DNA from: an uncultured Chthonomonadaceae bacterium | GTDB lineage: Bacteria; Armatimonadota; Chthonomonadetes; Chthonomonadales; Chthonomonadaceae | Assembly (NCBI GenBank): GCA_963817895.1 | Contig: CAWFQB010000014.1 | Span: 96,001-160,000, forward strand | Length of the DNA: 64,000 nt | Direction: 5' to 3' | In this document: positions 51,357-61,064 of the stretch, one piece after another | How the letters are laid out: the number at the start of each line of letters is the position of its first letter | Numbering within the stretch: the stretch's first letter is position 1 | Program-made: the position numbers and the translations under genes | Notes under the pieces: generated by a model | Databases searched by the model: none | What the model was told of the DNA's origin: nothing | The model's input: only the letters and a program-made list of their open reading frames with translations

Positions 51357-52607
51357 TTATGTCAGGACTTCTTCTTCGTCGCTGCCGTGAATGAGCCAGG
51401 GTTCGGTGGGGACGCTCAGGCTGAAGCTTCCCGTCGGCAGCAGGCCGCGCCAGTTTTGAATCAGTTCGCGATAGGCTTTACCGACCGGGCGTATTTTGCG
51501 ATCCAGATCGTAAAGGCCGAGCGGATTGACGTTGCCATCGTCATAGCGCAGGGCGCTGTCCCAATCCACCTGATCGGTCAGGCTGTACCAGGTAAAGCCG
51601 ATGATAGGAACGCCGTCCTGCCGCAGCCGGAACAGGTTGGCCCACTGCTTTTGCAGCCAATCGGGGGCGCGTTCCGAATCGCCGAGATTGGTTTCCGTGT
51701 GCATGACGGGCAGACGATAGCGGGAGAAATACTGGCAGGTAATCACGTAGTACCCGAAGATTTCGCCCGCAGCGGACCAGGTTCCGTCCTGATGCACCAT
51801 GTGTTCATTAGTGTAATAGTAGTCGTTGCCCATCACGCAACTTGCTTTGACGTGGTTACGCCCGAACCAGGCATACTCTTCCCGCGTCCAGCCGTGATCT
51901 AGCAGATACTCGTACATGGTGACATTCAGCGGATAGCCGTAGGTGAGGTCGAGCGAAAGGAACCGTTTTTCGTTCAGCACTTTGCACTGATAGAGGCAAT
52001 CGGGGTGTTCGGGATGGAAATACTCGGACGACTCGCTTTGTATGAAAATGGCGTCGCGCCGGACTTCCAAAATGGCGCGCATGGCAAGCACATTGGCCTT
52101 GCACAGGTGTTTGAGCGCGGTACAGAAATCCCGGTCACTGGAAAGACACTCGTTCCACCAGCCATATTGCGCGGAGAAACGTTGCCGCAATGAATATCTC
52201 ATTGACAGGCGTGTAGTACTTTACCCAGGGGAAACGCTTTGCAAATGCGCGGGCATAATCGGCGAACAATTCGGGCCAATCGGGGTTTTGGAAGTTGCCG
52301 ATCCAATCGGGGACACCGAAATGGCAAAGGTCTACGATGGGAGAGATACGCAGTCTGTTTCAGCGCGTTGAAAGTGTCGTCGGCAAAACTCCAGTCGTAT
52401 TTGTCCGCGCCGAGGTGCGTGGTGTGCAGGGGAGGGCCATAGCGCAGAGTGCTGGATGCCCATGTCTTTGACAAGCGCGAAATCTTCTTTCCAGCGTTGG
52501 TAATGGCCGCACTTTTCCATTTCATCCACGCGCTTTGTGGTTCCGTCGGGCAGTTGAATAGTGGGATAGCTGTTTTCGATTCCGGTGGCAAACATAAACT
52601 GCGACAT
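51357..52607 (-). CDS. Glycoside hydrolase family 1-like protein (frameshifted)
   Basis: FATGIENSYP, HYQRWKEDF, LRYGPP, MHTETN, GFTWYSLTDQVDWD, GLYDLDR. Confidence 0.8.
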
Positions 52608-52801
52608 AATGCGCTCCGAAAAAATATGAAAGAATGTGATAACAAATTTCATAAGAAAGCGGCGATGAAGTGTTTATGCAACATTCATCGCCGCTATAAA
52701 AGGGTGTCGTCCCGCGTATCCTACGATCATGGCAGGGGAACCTGGAATCAACGCCTGCGTGTGAAAAGACGGGGCGCAAATGGTTTGGGTTCCCGAAAGA
52801 T

Positions 52802-54582
52802 TTATGCCGCTCGTAGTTCTATGTCCGCGTACTCTACTCGACTTGGCTTCCGCAGCATATTGAGAAAGGCGGTCACAACATCGGGGGCAAAGTGCGTTCC
52901 GGCATGCTCCTGCAAGTAGGCGCGGACGCGGTGTTCCGGCCACCCCTGGCGGTAAGGACGGTCGGAGCGCAGAGCGTCCCATACATCCACGACCGCGAAC
53001 AATCGGGCAGCAAGTGGGATATTCTCTCCTTTTAAGCCCTGTGGATAGCCCGTGCCGTCCCATTTTTCATGGTGGCAGTGGGGAATGGCAAGCGCGGAGT
53101 GAAGAAAGGCGATGGGCGACAGCATCTCGTAGGCAAGCGAGGGATGGCGGCGCATGATTTCCCATTCTGACTCGTCCAGCGGCCCCGGCTTGCGCAGGAT
53201 GTTGTCGGGAATGCCCATTTTGCCGATGTCGTGCAGCAGCGCGCCCCAGCGGATATAGACGAACTGCATCTCATCCAGTCCCATGCGCCTCGCCAATTTC
53301 ATTGTCATTTCCGTTACTCGTTCGCTGTGTCCCTCCGTTTCTTTGTCGCGCAAATCCAAAATCTGTGACCAGCCCTGTATGGTGGCGTCGTACACTTTGC
53401 GCAGGGTTTCATCCAGCGTGGGAACGGTTGTTAGAGGGAGCCGAGATAGCGGGCATCTCTCCGGTCAGTTCAAAATCGTAATCATCGGCGTGGGTGAAAC
53501 AGTTTCGGCCAAGCGTTTTGGAACGATACAGAGCCTTGTCCGCCAGCGCGATCAGTTCCGAGCAGGAGGGGATAAGGTCATTGACCGTCGCCACGCCGAA
53601 ACTTGCGGTTACGGCGCGTTCCGGCCAGTAGGCGGTTTCAATGGCGATGCGGAACCGTTCGGCGGCTTCCCGCGCTCCCGTCGCGTCAGTTTCCGGCAGA
53701 ATGGCGACAAACTCTTCACCCCCGTAGCGGGCCAAAAAATCCGTATTGCGGGCAGTTCCAAGAAAAATAGCGGCCACACGTTTGAGGACAATATCTCCTG
53801 CGGGGTGACCAAAGGTGTCGTTGTACTGCTTGAATTTGTCCACATCCAATAGAACCAGTGATAGAGGCGTATGGTAGCGCTTGCTGCGTTCAAACTCCGT
53901 CACCAGTCGTTCCTGAAAAGCGCGGTGGTTTTTCAGGTCGGTAAGGCCGTCGGTTGTGGCCTGCGTTTGCAGCAGCATGTTGGCCTGATGCAGTTTTGAA
54001 TTGGCGATGGCGAGCTCCACGCGCTGGGCTTCTAATTCAACGTAAGCGTCATTGACGCTGCGTTATTGAAAGTTCGATTTGCTCCTGAAACCAGATACGT
54101 TCGGTGATGTCTGTATGGGAACCCGCAAGATGGCAGGGCTTGCCGTCGGCATCGCGCTGCACGGCCCCGCGCAATAAAATCCAGCGATAGGTTCCATTTT
54201 TGTGCCTCAGCCGGAACTCGACATCGAAGTTAAAAGCCTGACTTTGCAGATACTCTTTAATAGAATCAAATACGCCCGTCCGGTCTTCCTCATGGATATG
54301 TTCGGTCCAGGCTTCTACGTCATTGGGAAATTCGTGGTCTTCATACCCGATGATGCTTTTGCAGCGGGCGGAGAGATAACAGGTATTCGTTACAAGGTTC
54401 CAGTCCCATAGCCCGTCCTGCGAACCACGCATTGCCAGCGTATAGCGGGCTTCGGTTTCATGCAGGGCGCTTTCCGCCTGTTTGCGCCGCGCCAATTCTG
54501 CCTGCCACTTATGCGCGGAAGGGCATACTCGTGGCCGAAGGGTTTGGACAGGCTTCTGTTGCCGAGATGAAAAACCGCGCAA
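52802..54582 (-). CDS. PAS-GGDEF-HD-GYP c-di-GMP signalling protein (frameshifts near 54050 and 53420)
   Basis: PAS/PAC (GLWDWNL, FRLRHKNGTYRW); RNTD..RYGGEEF; LHDIGK, HHEKWDGTGYP. Confidence 0.85.
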
Positions 54583-55960
54583 ATTAATCCTCCTCCGAGA
54601 ATGCTAAACCAGTTTTGCTATATGCGCGGAGCAAGCGAAAATAGCCCTCAACCCAAAGCATTTTTCCGGGTATTGAAAATACCCGTCTGAGTGGCGTTCC
54701 GCCAAGCGTCCTTTGGACGCGATTCACTGCAAAACAAGCATTTGCGGGCGTAGGAGGACATAACATGTTATGTCGCTACGCCGCAGGCCATAGAGACAGG
54801 GGTTGAAAACCCCTGTCAAGAATGTGTTCGGTAGTGAAGTGAAAATCTAATATTGCATCGAATGTATGTATATTCGGACTGAGGAGGGGTGTTTTGGAGA
54901 GGAAGCGCCGATGTGCAACGATTTTTGTTGTTTTAGATGTTTGCAGACTGATGCGTTTGCAAATTCTTGTTCGCGTCGGCAACAAAATGGGCAGACCGAA
55001 ACCTGCGTTTCCCTCTGCCCATTTGATTCATCAAGCGCGAATTTTATTTTGTGGCTATACGTCGTGGGTGTCCCGCTCCGCGCTTTTGGAGAACAGGTAG
55101 GCATCGCCGATGTACTTCATGGCGACGCGGCCCACTTTGGGATCAACCCGCTCAATGATGGGCTTGACGACAACGCCCTCGCGTATGTGCGCGTCATCAA
55201 GGGTGGTTCCGCCCTCCGACAGCAGTTTGACGGTGTTCAGGTCGTACTCTCCCCGGAATAGAACCGGCACGGTTTCCACGCCATGACGGGCGCAGGCTTG
55301 CAGGAAATCATCCGGGTTCAGGTACTTGCCATCCACGAGCAGATCGAACGCGCGAAATCCCAGTTTGCCTTTGTGTCCATAATGCAAGTCCTGAATTTTG
55401 GAGCCGAATACTTCCCCGAAGAGAACCACCTGCCGATGTTCCGCGCCGAACTCTTCGAGCAGAGCGCGTACCGGCGTGAGAGACAGCGGAAACCAATAGG
55501 TGCTGCTTGCCCATTGCGCCTGTTCTTCGGGCGGCTTGCGGCGAACGCTCATGGAACCGGCCATCCATTCGCCTTCTATTAGGCTTACCCTACAGTTGCT
55601 TCCATGGATTTTCTCGGTAACAACGACTTCCTCGCCCGCCGTCAGCACATCGGGGAAGTTGCGCAGGTTTTCGACATCCGTGTATTCCACGAGCAGCGGA
55701 TGCGGCGGCAGAGCGTCGCCCGCAGTCGGCTTAAGCGGCGGAATGTACTTGGTAATCCCGTAGTAGGCTTTTACATCCTCGCCCTCCGTCCATTCGGGAT
55801 TTTCCACATCAATCAGAACGCCGAAAGAGGGTTCGCCGCGCAATCGGGCGCAGCGAACTCGTCCGGCAGGCGGTTCGGGCGCGTCGGGGCCGGTACGAAC
55901 GGAAAGATATTTGGTAATGTTCCATTTGTCGGCGTGTTCGAGCGGAATCAGGCTGTCAAT

Positions 55961-57024
55961 AGATACTCCGACAAATAGTATATAGGCTGTTTTGAGGCAG
56001 GCTAGCGCTCAGGTGGAGCAGACACACTCCACCCGTCGAAAACCCTTTTTCCGCGTTTACTTTTCCCGGCTTACGCGCCTTGCGGCTCGCGTGTCAGCGC
56101 GATCAATTGCACCAGACCCACCACACAGAAGCAAGTGCGACGGAACAATCCCGTCGCCAGACGATATTCATCACGCACCATCCGAAACGCTTTGACGCGC
56201 CGGATACTATGTTCGACACGCACACGCCCTGAGGAAAAGGCGCGGTTCTCTTCTTTCTGCACAGCGCTCAACGCGCCTCCGCGTGGCTTCTTGTGCGGCA
56301 CTTCGCTGTGGGGTAAGCCTTGATAGGCCAGATCGCCTTTGACCGTCGCATGGGGAAACTGCTTGGCAACCGTACTCTGCTCATGCACTTTCTTGTCCGA
56401 CTTCGGGCCGCGATAGCCCGCATCCACATCAAGAATGTCGCCATTGCGGTTGGTGATGACCTCGGTCTTGAGCGTGTGGTCTTTCTTCTTGCCCGAGTAG
56501 AAGGCGCGTTGCTTGGGTTCAATCGAGGGACGCGGAACCGGCGTCTCGAAACTATCCACAATCACCTGATCCACCTCCTCGGGCTTCCAGGAGGGTTCTT
56601 TCTTGGTCCAGCGTTTCTCCGCTTCCCAGCGGTTGGCCGGACACACGTCTTTGAGGACGCCGACAATCTCATGGAAGGTGTTCTCCGCCACATCGGCGCT
56701 GACGCCAAACAGCATGCCCACCACAGAGAAGGCGACGTTGTGGCGCAGGTACAGCAGCGTCAGCAACACTTCCTGGTAGGGCTTGAGCAGGCGTTTGCGG
56801 CCGCCTCCCACCTTGCGGCGGCGCGTGGGCTTGTTGGCCTGTTCTTGTTGGCGACGGCGCTCGATTTCGGGAAGCGCTGCCAGGAAGAGTTCAGCTAAGG
56901 CGGCGTGGGGTAGTCCGAAGAGCGAACGGACTTTGTTTTCGGGATAGCGGCCAAGTTCGTGAAGGTTCATACGTCTATTCTACCCGCGCCAAGAATAAAT
57001 CCAAACTTATTTGTCGGAGTATCT
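55961..57024 (-). mobile_element. IS5-like insertion sequence
   Basis: Perfect 17-bp IR AGATACTCCGACAAATA (55961-55977 / 57008-57024); 3-bp AAT target duplication (55958-55960, 57025-57027). Confidence 0.9.
56071..56970 (-). CDS. IS5/IS4-like DDE transposase (HTH_Tnp_4 and DDE_Tnp_4 type)
   Basis: LLTLLYLRHN..LFGVS, IVDSFE, YSGKKK.HTLK, GDLAYQG, RVRVEHSIRRVK. Confidence 0.88.
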   Translation of the reverse strand: MNLHELGRYPENKVRSLFGLPHAALAELFLAALPEIERRRQQEQANKPTRRRKVGGGRKRLLKPYQEVLLTLLYLRHNVAFSVVGMLFGVSADVAENTFHEIVGVLKDVCPANRWEAEKRWTKKEPSWKPEEVDQVIVDSFETPVPRPSIEPKQRAFYSGKKKDHTLKTEVITNRNGDILDVDAGYRGPKSDKKVHEQSTVAKQFPHATVKGDLAYQGLPHSEVPHKKPRGGALSAVQKEENRAFSSGRVRVEHSIRRVKAFRMVRDEYRLATGLFRRTCFCVVGLVQLIALTREPQGA

Positions 57025-57206
57025 AATGGGTATGTACGTGACCAGACTGCCCGCCTGATATTTGCCTTTGGGAATCACGCATTGCCAGCCCTTGATCTGG
57101 CACAATTCCAGCGCGTCGGCGTTGCCATGCGGCATCACGCGCTCAATCTTGCACACTTCTACAATGCACTCGGACATAGGTATACCCTCCAAAAATTACG
57201 TTGCTA

Positions 57207-57285
57207 TGAGAGTGGAGGGAATCGAACCCCCTTGCTTTCGCCGCAGGGTTACAGCCTGCTGCCCGACCATTTAGGCTTCACTCTC
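57207..57285 (-). tRNA. tRNA-Tyr(GTA), atypical (A8, short variable arm, no encoded CCA)
   Basis: Acceptor GAGAGTG/CACTCTC plus A73; D stem GCCT/GGGC; anticodon arm GCAGG-CTGTAAC-CCTGC; T loop TTCGATT. Confidence 0.85.
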
Positions 57286-57403
57286 AGGAATCAGTTTAGC
57301 CGCGAATGAACGCGAATGAACGCGAATATAGAATACAAATAGCAGAATAGCGACCGTGAACGGACTTGTCCCTGATACCTAACACCAAACACCTGATCTT
57401 TTA

Positions 57404-57478
57404 TGGAAGCGGTCGGAATCGAACCGACAACACGTACTGTGCGAAAGTACATCGCTGACCCTTAGGACATGCGCCCCC
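57404..57478 (-). tRNA. tRNA-Ala(CGC)-like, degenerate D arm, no encoded CCA
   Basis: Acceptor GGGGGCG/CGCTTCC with G3-U70 and A73; anticodon arm GTACT-TTCGCAC-AGTAC; T arm GTCGG-TTCGATT-CCGAC; C8 and poorly paired D stem. Confidence 0.75.
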
Positions 57479-57502
57479 ATGTTTTTGTTGAAAATTCTCC
57501 AC

Positions 57503-57547
57503 ATTAAAAACGAACTTCAGCCCGGTCTGAGGTTCCAGACCGGGCTG
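57503..57547 (-). terminator. Putative attenuator hairpin upstream of the tRNAs
   Basis: 12-bp stem CAGCCCGGTCTG-GAACCT-CAGACCGGGCTG followed by AAGTTCGTTTTTAAT on the minus strand. Confidence 0.6.
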
Positions 57548-57579
57548 CGCATTGTTGTCAGGGAATGAACAAATTTGCG

Positions 57580-57711
57580 TTAGTGTGGTTCTGGAAGGCG
57601 CGACGGAACAGTATACCCGGCGTAGGCATAGACTGCGGCCTGTGTATACGTGAGGCCGGTGCAGTCGGAATATGCGGTTGTTGCCGAATTGGTGTTCATG
57701 CGTTTAGTCAT
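57580..57711 (-). CDS. Putative leader peptide MTKRMNTNSATTAYSDCTGLTYTQAAVYAYAGYTVPSRLPEPH (43 aa; alternative start 57699)
   Basis: Translated by hand (below the ORF-track cutoff); stop lies 32 nt before the hairpin; its 3' end is complementary to the hairpin 5' arm. Confidence 0.55.
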   Translation of the reverse strand: MTKRMNTNSATTAYSDCTGLTYTQAAVYAYAGYTVPSRLPEPH

Positions 57712-57946
57712 TTGAAAAAAGATTGTTGACGGAGCGCTATCAGGGTAATGTTAGCGATTTGCGCGCTTTCAGGCGTTCCACACGCATTGACAGCGGCGTT
57801 GTGGCGAAAGTTGCGCCGCAGGAAAAAACATTTGGCGACTTTTCCTGCCTCTCCCGCTTCAGATAACCGATAATACTACGAGAACCTTGTCGCATACGTG
57901 TCCACAAAGAACGTTGAAGGCGTGGGGGCTGGTGAAGGGAAAGTCC

Positions 57947-59491
57947 ATGAACAGGAATGGTATTGCGACAATGGGCGCGTTGTTCCAGAGACAAAGTGAG
58001 ATGGGGGAGCGCGTACATGTTTTTGATTGGTCGCAGACGCCTTTGGGACCAAGAGAAGCATGGCCGCAGAGTCTGAGCATGGCTGTCGGTATATGCCTCA
58101 ACAGCAACTTTCCCATGTTCGTCTGGTGGGGGCCAAAACTGATAAACATCTATAACGATGCGTATGCTCCCATTCTCGGACTTCGACACCCGGCAGCGCT
58201 CGGCAGACCGGCGCGAGAAATCTGGACGGATATATGGCCGGTGATTGAAGCCGATGTAGACTCGGTAATACATGGTGGGCAGGCTGTGTCCCATGAACGA
58301 GTGCGCTTCATAATGGAGCGCAACGGCTACCCGGAGGAGACATACTTCACCTACTCGCATAGCCCCATTCCTGACGAATACGGCGGGGTCGGCGGATTAT
58401 TTCAGGTGTGTACGGACGAAACCGCGCAGGTATTTGCCGAACGTGAACGCGACAAAATGGCCGCGCAGCGGCAACTGGCGCTGGACGCGGCCAATATGGG
58501 GTGGTGGCACTACGACCCGGAAACCAAAATTGCGGCGTGGGACGAACGGTACAAGGAAATCTTCGGGGTTGCGGATTTTCAGCGCCCCAATGAGGAGATA
58601 CTCGCGCGTATCCACCCGGACGATCTGCCCGGTGTCTGGTCCGCAGTGGAGGCGGCGCTCAATCCGCATGACCCGCAGCCCTACGCGGTTCAGTACCGCA
58701 TTTTTCGCGAGGAGAAGATACGCTGGATTGAGGCGCGGGGAATCGCCACTTTCGACGGTTTGGATACAGACCGACGGGCGACGAGTTTGGTGGGGACGGT
58801 GGCCGACATCACGGAGCGCAAACGCGCCGAAGAGGCGATGCTGGCGCGGAATCAGGAGATTGCAAGTCTGAACGCGCGGCTTACGCGAGCGATGAAAGAG
58901 ACGCACCACCGCGTTAAAAACAACCTGCAAGTAATCGCGGCCATGATTGATATGCAGGTGATGGAACATGAAAGCGAGCAGACGGTTCCCATCGAGGAAT
59001 TGATTCGGCTGAAAGCGCATGTGCATACGCTGGCGATTGTACATGACCTGCTGACCAAAGGCGTGAAGGAAGAGGAGGACGCGCAACGCGTTTCGACCCG
59101 AGCCGTGCTGGAAAAGCTGTTACCCATGCTGCAATGTACTGCCTGGAAGCAGACAGTACGCTATGCGGTAGACGAGGTAGGGCTTACTTCCAAACAGTGC
59201 ATTGCGCTTTCGCTTATCCTCACCGAACTGGTTTCCAACGCCCTAAAGCATGGCAGAAGGGAGGCGGAAGTATTTTTCAGAGTGGAAGGCCGGTATGCAA
59301 CACTCTCGGTCTATGACGATGGGGTAGGTTTTCCTGACGACTTTGATCCCAAAAAGGCCGCGAATACCGGACTGGAACTCGTCGGCAGTCTGGTTTGCGC
59401 TGACCTGCAAGGAACCCTTGTATTTGGCAACCAACCTACGGGCGGCGGATATGTCCGAGTTGTATTTCCGTTGCCGCCAGACGGAGAATAA
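57947..59491 (+). CDS. PAS-domain sensor histidine kinase (HisKA_2 type)
   Basis: FDWSQTPLGP..WPQSL, two PAS/PAC domains, ETHHRVKNNLQ, ELVSNALKHG, DDGVG. Confidence 0.9.
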   Translation: MNRNGIATMGALFQRQSEMGERVHVFDWSQTPLGPREAWPQSLSMAVGICLNSNFPMFVWWGPKLINIYNDAYAPILGLRHPAALGRPAREIWTDIWPVIEADVDSVIHGGQAVSHERVRFIMERNGYPEETYFTYSHSPIPDEYGGVGGLFQVCTDETAQVFAERERDKMAAQRQLALDAANMGWWHYDPETKIAAWDERYKEIFGVADFQRPNEEILARIHPDDLPGVWSAVEAALNPHDPQPYAVQYRIFREEKIRWIEARGIATFDGLDTDRRATSLVGTVADITERKRAEEAMLARNQEIASLNARLTRAMKETHHRVKNNLQVIAAMIDMQVMEHESEQTVPIEELIRLKAHVHTLAIVHDLLTKGVKEEEDAQRVSTRAVLEKLLPMLQCTAWKQTVRYAVDEVGLTSKQCIALSLILTELVSNALKHGRREAEVFFRVEGRYATLSVYDDGVGFPDDFDPKKAANTGLELVGSLVCADLQGTLVFGNQPTGGGYVRVVFPLPPDGE

Positions 59492-59857: not shown

Positions 59858-61064
59858 TTACGCCAAAACGGGCAGGGGAATGAGGGTGTGTTCTTTGTGC
59901 GCGGCTTCTTCGGGCTGTGGGGGAACTTCGCGGTAGAGGCTGTCGCGCTCAATGGGGATGCGTCCGGCCTCTTCGATCATGCGGATCATCTGCTTGCGCG
60001 TGAGTACCTGCGATTTGTTGCCCCGTTCGCCGTCCTTGTAGGTAATTTCGTACTCGTGGACGGTTCCGTCTACGTCGTCCGCGCCGTACCAGAGGGCGAG
60101 CTGCGTCACCTGCGGCGTGTTCATAATCCAGAACGATTTGACGTGCGCGAAGTTGTCCAGCATCAGGCGGGCGACAGCGATGTTGCGCAGGTCGTCCGTG
60201 CCGGTCGGGTGGGGGATGTTTTCCAGTTCCGTGCCTTCGGGGTGGAACGAGAGCGGCGTCATGGTAACGAAGTGTTTGGTTTCGTCCTGCAAGTTCGCGC
60301 ATTTTGACCAGATGTTCGGCGCGTTCTTCCAGCGTTTCGATATGGCCGTACAGCATCGTGGCGTACTGGGTCAGGCCAACGCGGGCGGCGGAACGGGCTA
60401 CGTCCATCCAGCCTGCGCCGTCCAATTTGCGGTCGAACAGGGCTTCGTGAACACGGTCGGAAAGGATTTCAATCCCGCCGCCGGGAAGGGAGTCCAGTCC
60501 CGCTTCCATAAGTTCGCGCAGCACGTCTTCTAAGGGCTTTTTGGCCTGCCGCTGTATTTCCACGAGTTCTACCATCGTGAACGCTTTGATGTGGACGTTC
60601 GGGCGCACTTCTTTGACGGTTCGCAGCAGATCGAGATAATATTGGTAGGGCAAGCGCGGGTCAATACCGCCGACCATGTGAACTTCGGTTATCGGCACAT
60701 CAATGTGGGCCAGCAGTTTCTGGCGCACCATCTCCATGTTCATCTCGTAGGGGGCGGGACCGCCTTTTTTGGCGTAAAACGAGCAGAACTTGCAGAACTT
60801 GTTGCAGATGTTGGTGTAGTTGATGTGCTGATTGCGGACATAGTACGCTTTGTCGCCGTGCAGCCGTTCGCGCACGATGTTGGCAAGGTAGCCCACTGCG
60901 CTCAGGCTCGGCGTATGGTACAGCCGAACGCCATCTTCATACGACAAGCGTTCCTGATTGGCAACCTTGACGTAAATGTCCATCAAGTCCGCGCCGATAT
61001 AGCGCTCCACGCGCCTGCGCAGTAAATCGGGTTGCGCCTGTTCTTGCATTGCCTGTATTGCCAT
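59858..61064 (-). CDS. mqnE: Aminofutalosine synthase MqnE (CofH-family radical SAM), frameshift near 60293
   Basis: HINYTNICNKFCKFCSF (CxxxCxxC), EVHMVGG, HIKAFT.VE, LPGGGIEI, ATMLYGHIET, HVKSFW, YGADDVDGT. Confidence 0.85.

Follow-up and report, generated by a model that had tools for sequence, protein, structure and literature searches.

Spare tRNAs are probably produced only once a shortage of them stalls ribosomes, as suggested by leader sequences upstream of tRNA genes in Armatimonadota

The window analyzed here is a 64,000 nt stretch of DNA from an uncultured Chthonomonadaceae bacterium, whose genome is designated G000 (C-numbers denote contigs). A short leader ORF on its minus strand is followed by a hairpin, two tRNA genes and an RNA ligase gene (Table 1). 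The best explanation of this locus, with a probability of roughly 0.7, is a ribosome-mediated transcription attenuator in which the leader serves as a test message for the downstream tRNAs. RNA polymerase would transcribe the leader with a ribosome trailing. A ribosome that arrives at the final 8–10 codons would cover the antiterminator strand, whereupon the terminator would form and transcription would stop before the tRNA genes. If the ribosome instead stalls or falls behind before that point, mainly at the five Tyr codons under a shortage of usable tRNA-Tyr (through cleavage, loss or lack of charging), the leader end would capture the loop-proximal half of the terminator 5' arm, and polymerase would read through into the two tRNA genes and the ligase gene. 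The switch should respond to general translation stress, too. In this scheme we infer leader translation, termination, the signal and the working state of this particular copy.

Table 1. Features of the leader, tRNA and RNA ligase locus (window coordinates)
Feature	Position	Strand	Evidence or remark
Candidate promoter GCAACT-N15-18-GTC	57787..57814	-	motif ahead of 6 of 15 family-A leaders
Leader ORF	57580..57711	-	43 aa from 57711; 39 aa from ATG 57699; 5 Tyr codons
Nested RNA hairpin within leader	57617..57687	-	GCAUA/UAUGC stem made of Ala and Tyr codons
Antiterminator strand (final leader codons)	57587..57596	-	pairs with 57541-57533; covariation in 12 loci
Spacer hairpin, places antiterminator beside 5' arm	57548..57579	-	RNA folding
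Putative terminator: hairpin 57547-57518 and offset U5 tract 57510-57506	57506..57547	-	
Atypical supernumerary tRNA-Ala(CGC)	57403..57479	-	ARAGORN; G3-U70 present
Short repeat between tRNAs	57293..57329	-	genome-wide; outside the switch
Atypical supernumerary tRNA-Tyr(GTA)	57206..57286	-	ARAGORN; Rfam tRNA 50.4 bits
RNA ligase (DRB0094/Rnl5 type), 5' part	57026..57177	-	PF21189; 90% identical to intact ligase of same-genus relative G002
IS, 1066 bp, terminal inverted repeats, DDE_Tnp_4	55960..57025	-	splits ligase; Pfam
RNA ligase, 3' part	55055..55959	-	PF09414

The leader translation has the composition given in the original prediction, which was made from the sequence without database searches: 5 Tyr, 6 Ala and 8 Thr, with the cluster AAVYAYAGY and the C-terminal end SRLPEPH. 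Tyr and Ala are the identities of the two downstream tRNAs, as had also been noted. The start that aligns with relatives is the ATG of the 39 aa form and not the start of the longer form. Five Tyr in 43 residues has a P of 0.005 relative to the composition of long ORFs in the genome, and only 18 of 9268 short ORFs in the genome have at least five. Thr is enriched as well (P = 0.003), though there is no downstream tRNA-Thr, and Ala is at background (P = 0.30). The Tyr codons are at positions 14, 22, 28, 30 and 33, and every Tyr and Ala codon lies within codons 10–33; Trp codons are absent from the leader. The Ala codons are three GCA and three GCC with no GCG, which bears out the earlier caveat that a CGC anticodon does not read them. 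No strong ribosome-binding site was found for the leader.

The frame of the leader is maintained in G002, a relative of the same genus, with one 3-nt indel and with 18 identical, 8 synonymous and 14 non-synonymous codons. All five Tyr are retained between G000 and G002, two of them through TAT/TAC swaps. Part of the leader composition is structural, since two Tyr and two Ala codons make up the GCAUA/UAUGC stem; this stem shows two both-side changes between G000 and G002, a comparison of two sequences only. The other three Tyr codons (22, 30 and 33) lie outside the consensus stems and are also retained, two via synonymous change. The SRLPEPH end had been likened to Arg/Pro C-terminal arrest motifs, and this is rejected. 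The corresponding residues are LCLPAPS in the same-genus orthologue and P-D-R-x-x in others, such that the motif is not conserved among these leaders, and the Pro-Asp/Glu codons that they have in common make up the antiterminator strand.

The putative terminator hairpin has 13 bp and a delta G of -26.4 kcal/mol (z = -4.5). Its U5 tract begins 7 nt past the stem, an offset already pointed out in the first reading of the sequence; the U-rich tail is nearer the stem in most relatives. The offset may weaken the switch of this copy, with an efficiency that is uncertain in both directions. A small alternative hairpin beside the U tract was considered and rejected, as it has only -3.3 kcal/mol and is absent in G002. 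The complementarity between the leader end and the hairpin arm consists, as proposed, of 9 bp with one bulge (A57590). It is weak taken alone: the duplex has a delta G of -12.5 kcal/mol, which is equaled in 5.75% of 2000 dinucleotide shuffles, and it is near the weak end of the candidates listed among 115 loose genome-wide leader/terminator candidates, where the locus is not singled out. The duplex is accepted as real because of its conservation and not its strength. The antiterminator strand overlaps the leader end and pairs with the terminator 5' arm, and the resulting mutually exclusive folds, which formed the core of the prediction, are conserved in 12 loci.

Constrained folding, in which the ribosome is modeled as an unpaired block, gives an antiterminator probability of 1.0 with the A site on codons 1–34 and of 0 from codon 35–37 to the stop with three footprint lengths. 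The antiterminator is thus intact with a ribosome on the Tyr and Ala codons and is abolished at the leader end. In the nascent transcript of this locus the antiterminator probability is about 1, and the terminator wins once 7 nt of the 3' arm are exposed (to 57523). In 9 of 9 loci the terminator is favored over the antiterminator at equilibrium, so that the switch must be under kinetic control. Searches of positions 56900–58100 gave no Rfam cis-regulatory match, i.e., no T-box or curated riboswitch, and only tRNA reaches the gathering score.

The ligase is present in 9 of 61 relatives and in 51 of 401 genomes of the phylum. Leaders related to the one described here (family A) were gathered upstream of ligase genes, then via patterns and an RNA model. 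Fifteen were counted and 12 aligned; 10 weak matches to the RNA model without a tRNA within 1.5 kb are excluded from the counts. Family-A leaders precede long tRNA arrays, Ala, Tyr and ligase genes (G000 and G002), or rtcB or ligase genes without tRNA, and leaders homologous to the present one precede arrays of up to 22 called tRNAs. In the 12 aligned loci the leader stop is 33–38 nt ahead of the 5' arm, and both frame and stop position are conserved. Nine loci were folded. In these, the antiterminator strand is 48–52 nt before the arm, each of the seven core pairs is present, and the antiterminator forms in the nascent transcript with a probability of 0.98–1.0.

In the 12-row alignment, 91.5% of antiterminator cells are paired (reached by 3 of 500 shuffles, with slid controls at or below 47%), although the alignment cannot display the bulge of G000 and G002. 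The value for the terminator is 98.3% (0 of 500 shuffles). Columns 84 and 87 of the arm co-vary with both of its partners, the 3' arm and the leader strand, which is the covariation expected of the predicted switch. G000 and G002 differ at a single antiterminator base, which is the bulged position. There is a core mismatch in the antiterminator of genome G389. Three of the 12 rows were found by a pattern that requires the antiterminator, and the rest via the ligase or terminator alone. A second set of 48 counted leaders, family B, differs in sequence but shares the layout and the types of downstream genes; its pattern matched 23 of 39 genomes. Conservation of the leader peptides is poor, and frameshifts are present in two family-B leaders. 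No tRNA follows 13 of the leaders, one of which has 3 Tyr; this suggests a general stress input as well. By sequence comparison, a putative attenuator family is well supported.

The GCAACT...GTC motif, which we take to be an ECF-sigma-like promoter, precedes 6 of the 15 family-A leaders, and a TTGACA...TAnnnT motif precedes 6 others. The promoter-like GCAACT motif shows no genome-wide enrichment (13 matches vs 11 in the control), and a sigma-70 scan found no site at the locus. A GCAACT...GTCA motif is also present upstream of tRNA-Arg/His (G000:C9:104595) and tRNA-Gln (C11:11574, minus strand) genes. The short repeat between the two tRNA genes has a core pattern with 138 matches in the genome.

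Some of the related loci have additional features. Two arrays (L216, L222) contain a second internal leader-terminator unit, in which the leader and its downstream tRNAs are both without Tyr. In three loci (L223, L204, L213) the same attenuator is ahead of an ORF, which presumably resembles tRNA-His guanylyltransferase. The orthologous ligase of L017 (G001:C2:587556-589679) is 708 aa and has an insertion of about 350 aa that is intein-like in appearance; tRNA-His and tRNA-Tyr are ahead of this ligase, and no leader was seen there.

The correspondence between leader codons and downstream tRNAs was determined for 63 leaders (15 of family A and 48 of family B), 50 of which have tRNAs. The tRNAs were called at a relaxed threshold and chained behind the terminator within 5.5 kb. 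The initial 69 leaders had included a false match on the minus strand (L038), two sequences with no downstream DNA (L122, L124), a tRNA remnant (L157), a short view (L176) and a frameshifted leader (L225), all of which were dropped, as were three further matches without an ORF call. The short ORF of L225 has neither Tyr nor Glu despite both tRNAs and would add 2 misses. The G002 row was set manually to the frame homologous to the present leader.

For leader and amino acid pairs with a cognate downstream tRNA, 329 of 331 are encoded in frame, compared with 84–89% in the five other frames. Tyr is present in 38 of 38 leaders with a downstream tRNA-Tyr and in 12 of 25 without. The corresponding values are 19/19 and 23/44 for Lys, 10/10 and 28/53 for Trp, and 15/15 and 35/48 for His. 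At the level of anticodons, with wobble rules applied, 387 of 406 have a readable leader codon vs 309 and 318 in two shifted frames. Rare codons follow the same trend with vs without the cognate: TTA 13/14 vs 10/49, AAA 19/19 vs 15/44 and ATA 11/12 vs 25/51. Expressed as frequency, the cognate effect is 0.68 SD vs 0.03 once array size, GC and family are corrected for (label permutations, 0 of 20000). The bias in leader amino acids thus tracks tRNA identity at other loci, a check proposed with the original prediction. Ala does not follow this trend, with a frequency of 0.129 in leaders with tRNA-Ala and 0.127 in those without, and the Ala(CGC) of the present copy is one of the 19 anticodon-level misses. 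The predicted ribosome-gated switch at Tyr and Ala codons is supported in part, for the switch and for Tyr; the Ala half, with a background frequency and no GCG codon, is not supported as something sensed by this copy.

The counted leaders are kin to one another. The match holds within each family, without G000 and G002, and after clustering at 60% identity. With 50% identity clustering (33 clusters), 0 of 3000 permutations reached the observed value in 30 of 30 draws, and with 40% identity clustering (15 clusters) the median p is 0.014 and the worst 0.12. Tree-based independent pairs are too few for a test (five in family B and two in family A), with 2.4 in the same direction and 0.3 in the opposite. 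Leader length and array size are correlated (r = 0.51), the choice of the most distant ATG as the start in part produces the Met match, and one control frame reached p = 0.024. The sequences support a family-wide match of leader codons to downstream tRNAs, which is strongest for Tyr.

Leaders before short operons are concentrated in the codons of interest. Those before Ala and Tyr tRNAs have 5 and 6 Tyr (1.1 expected), and the family-B leader L200 (G423:C1:5038000-5044400, minus strand) has 6 internal Met and 10 Pro (0.8 and 5.3 expected) before tRNA-Pro and tRNA-Met. A held-out family-A leader with a GTG start, L238 (G032:C79:9000-16200, minus strand), encodes HPVHYCYHAA just ahead of the antiterminator, and its downstream tRNAs are exactly Ala, His and Tyr. 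The source genome also has a 17-tRNA array (G000:C4:230390-223181, minus strand) with its own 59-aa leader, unrelated in sequence to the one described here. This array leader, which has a strong antiterminator/terminator pair, ranked first (-29.6 kcal/mol) among the candidates listed in the genome-wide scan. The leader encodes 15 of the 15 amino acids of its array and is without Tyr and His, as is the array; it also contains Ala, Gln and Met, which the array lacks.

The locus could represent a generic translation-stress (antibiotic) attenuator whose Tyr richness derives from RNA structure, drift or inheritance. That the same switch is found before rtcB or ligase genes without tRNA agrees with this, as do the poorly conserved peptides, the two frameshifted family-B leaders, and the stem that accounts for two of the Tyr codons. 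The Anabaena tRNA array, moreover, is induced by chloramphenicol (PMC8421152). The in-frame, codon-level match and the retention of Tyr by synonymous change outside the stem are nevertheless left unexplained, and we consider this explanation unlikely as a replacement for the codon-matched attenuator, with which it is compatible as an additional input. The Thr enrichment, which equals that of Tyr here with no tRNA-Thr, speaks against the codon-matched attenuator. It is also conceivable, but improbable, that the family is real and this copy is a decaying remnant that is constitutively terminating or leaky. The IS in the ligase, the offset U tract, the CGC anticodon in place of TGC in the orthologue, and the duplex of only -12.5 kcal/mol are the signs of decay. 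Set against these, the frame, 9 of 9 antiterminator pairs, the 13-bp stem, the promoter motif and the folds of both tRNAs are intact. The insertion is recent, as shown by the identity of the IS copies, and frame breaks elsewhere in the assembly mean that single bases may be errors.

A very improbable explanation is a classical attenuator for amino acid starvation (Tyr or Ala supply), or a switch that operates by an arrest peptide via SRLPEPH. Uncharged tRNA-Tyr would stall the same codons, and the geometry is that of the trp and his leaders. The downstream genes are, however, tRNAs and RNA ligases and not biosynthesis genes, an extra tRNA would presumably give no relief from starvation, and the lack of conservation at the C-terminal end argues against an arrest peptide. 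Because RtcB, Rnl5 and other RNA-processing genes accompany the leaders, these neighbors suggest that tRNA damage, rather than amino acid hunger, may be the signal.

In the trpL, hisL, thrL and pheL leaders, control codons lie upstream and a ribosome at the stop masks the antiterminator. Such leaders control biosynthesis or synthetase genes and have runs of one to three amino acids. The leaders described here resemble them in the upstream control codons and the predicted masking of the antiterminator by the ribosome, but differ in that they can span up to about 20 kinds of amino acids, each represented by a codon or two. In a Clostridium, tRNA genes are reportedly under T-box control. No description of codon-matched leader attenuation of tRNA genes was found in the titles and abstract openings searched, in which subscription literature is thinly covered.

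The whiB7/wblC attenuator of actinobacteria is similar in having a long, poorly conserved uORF and a ribosome-gated terminator and antiterminator. Two reports (10.1101/2023.06.02.543512; PMC11550727) describe that full translation of the uORF leads to a Rho-independent terminator and stalling to an antiterminator, and that the codon content of the uORF sets the shortage that is sensed, i.e., Trp-less and His-less variants lose the matching response. A further report describes that tRNA instability raises whiB7/wblC expression (10.1101/2025.10.10.681568). The likeness is one of proposed mechanism. The output there is a transcription factor, whereas here it is the tRNA genes themselves, and here the leader content follows the tRNA set of each operon. 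By analogy, the mechanism would be that known from whiB7 and trp attenuators, with tRNA genes as an apparently new output. The tRNA L-arrays, including the Anabaena trn operon, resemble the present loci in having supernumerary tRNAs beside RNA-repair genes and, by the model proposed here, in their induction on impaired translation (PMC8421152; PMC10272220). The trn operon differs in its control, in which the repressor TrcR and direct repeats at the promoter take part; the main text of PMC8421152 contains none of the words attenuat-, leader and terminator. The present locus also differs in having two tRNAs only, and not a long array.

The two tRNAs are supernumerary as in L-arrays, i.e., additional to other Tyr and Ala genes in the genome. 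The other tRNA-Tyr, on C10, is unlike that of the locus, and there are three other tRNA-Ala genes (CGC, TGC and GGC). The anticodon of the orthologous tRNA-Ala is TGC, which reads GCA codons, compared with CGC here. The downstream ligase belongs to the family of Deinococcus DraRnl/Rnl5 (DRB0094; TIGR02306), with the difference that the gene is split by an IS. The intact orthologous ligase scores 192 bits on TIGR02306, above the cut-off of 151, and the 3' piece of the two-piece gene scores 119 bits, below it. The IS, which the original prediction did not mention, has 13 copies in the genome, 12 of them at 100% identity. A search for RtcB in this genome (81% complete) found none. In duplexes, DraRnl closes nicks with 3'-OH/5'-phosphate ends (PMC5397189; PMC1807946). 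The ligase may have a role in tRNA repair, and by analogy the nick specificity of DraRnl would imply that nuclease-cut tRNA needs end healing.

A broader proposal, in which we place about equal belief and doubt, is that the bacteria of the phylum monitor the state of their tRNA pool. The leader of each spare-tRNA operon would spell the codons that its tRNAs read, and loss of a specific tRNA, e.g., through anticodon nucleases from phages, toxins or defence systems, would stall the leader ribosome and elicit replacement tRNAs and RNA ligases. Leaders would be re-tuned when arrays split or shrink, with the present locus as a Tyr-specialized end state. The switching-on of horizontally spread spare-tRNA arrays has so far been described for a cyanobacterium, where it involves a repressor. 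A codon-matched leader, if true, would give tRNA supply a direct feedback loop and would sense tRNA damage in cis. The leader would name the tRNA expected to trigger each operon, which provides a simple test of the purpose of an array, and anticodon-nuclease activity could be monitored with it as a reporter. Testing would be simplest at the two-tRNA locus, where the prediction comes down to five Tyr codons.

Other unusual tRNA genes are present in the source genome. Three atypical tRNA genes (Met, Cys and Glu) with near-identical arms are located at G000:C3:373423-373740 (minus strand), with no leader seen. Within the window, several genes appear split across frames at positions 51357-52652, 52802-54582 and 59858-61064, which suggests indel errors in the assembly. 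ARAGORN also calls tRNA-Pyl(CTA) and tRNA-SeC, at G000:C11:90528-90599 and C1:245013-245110, respectively.
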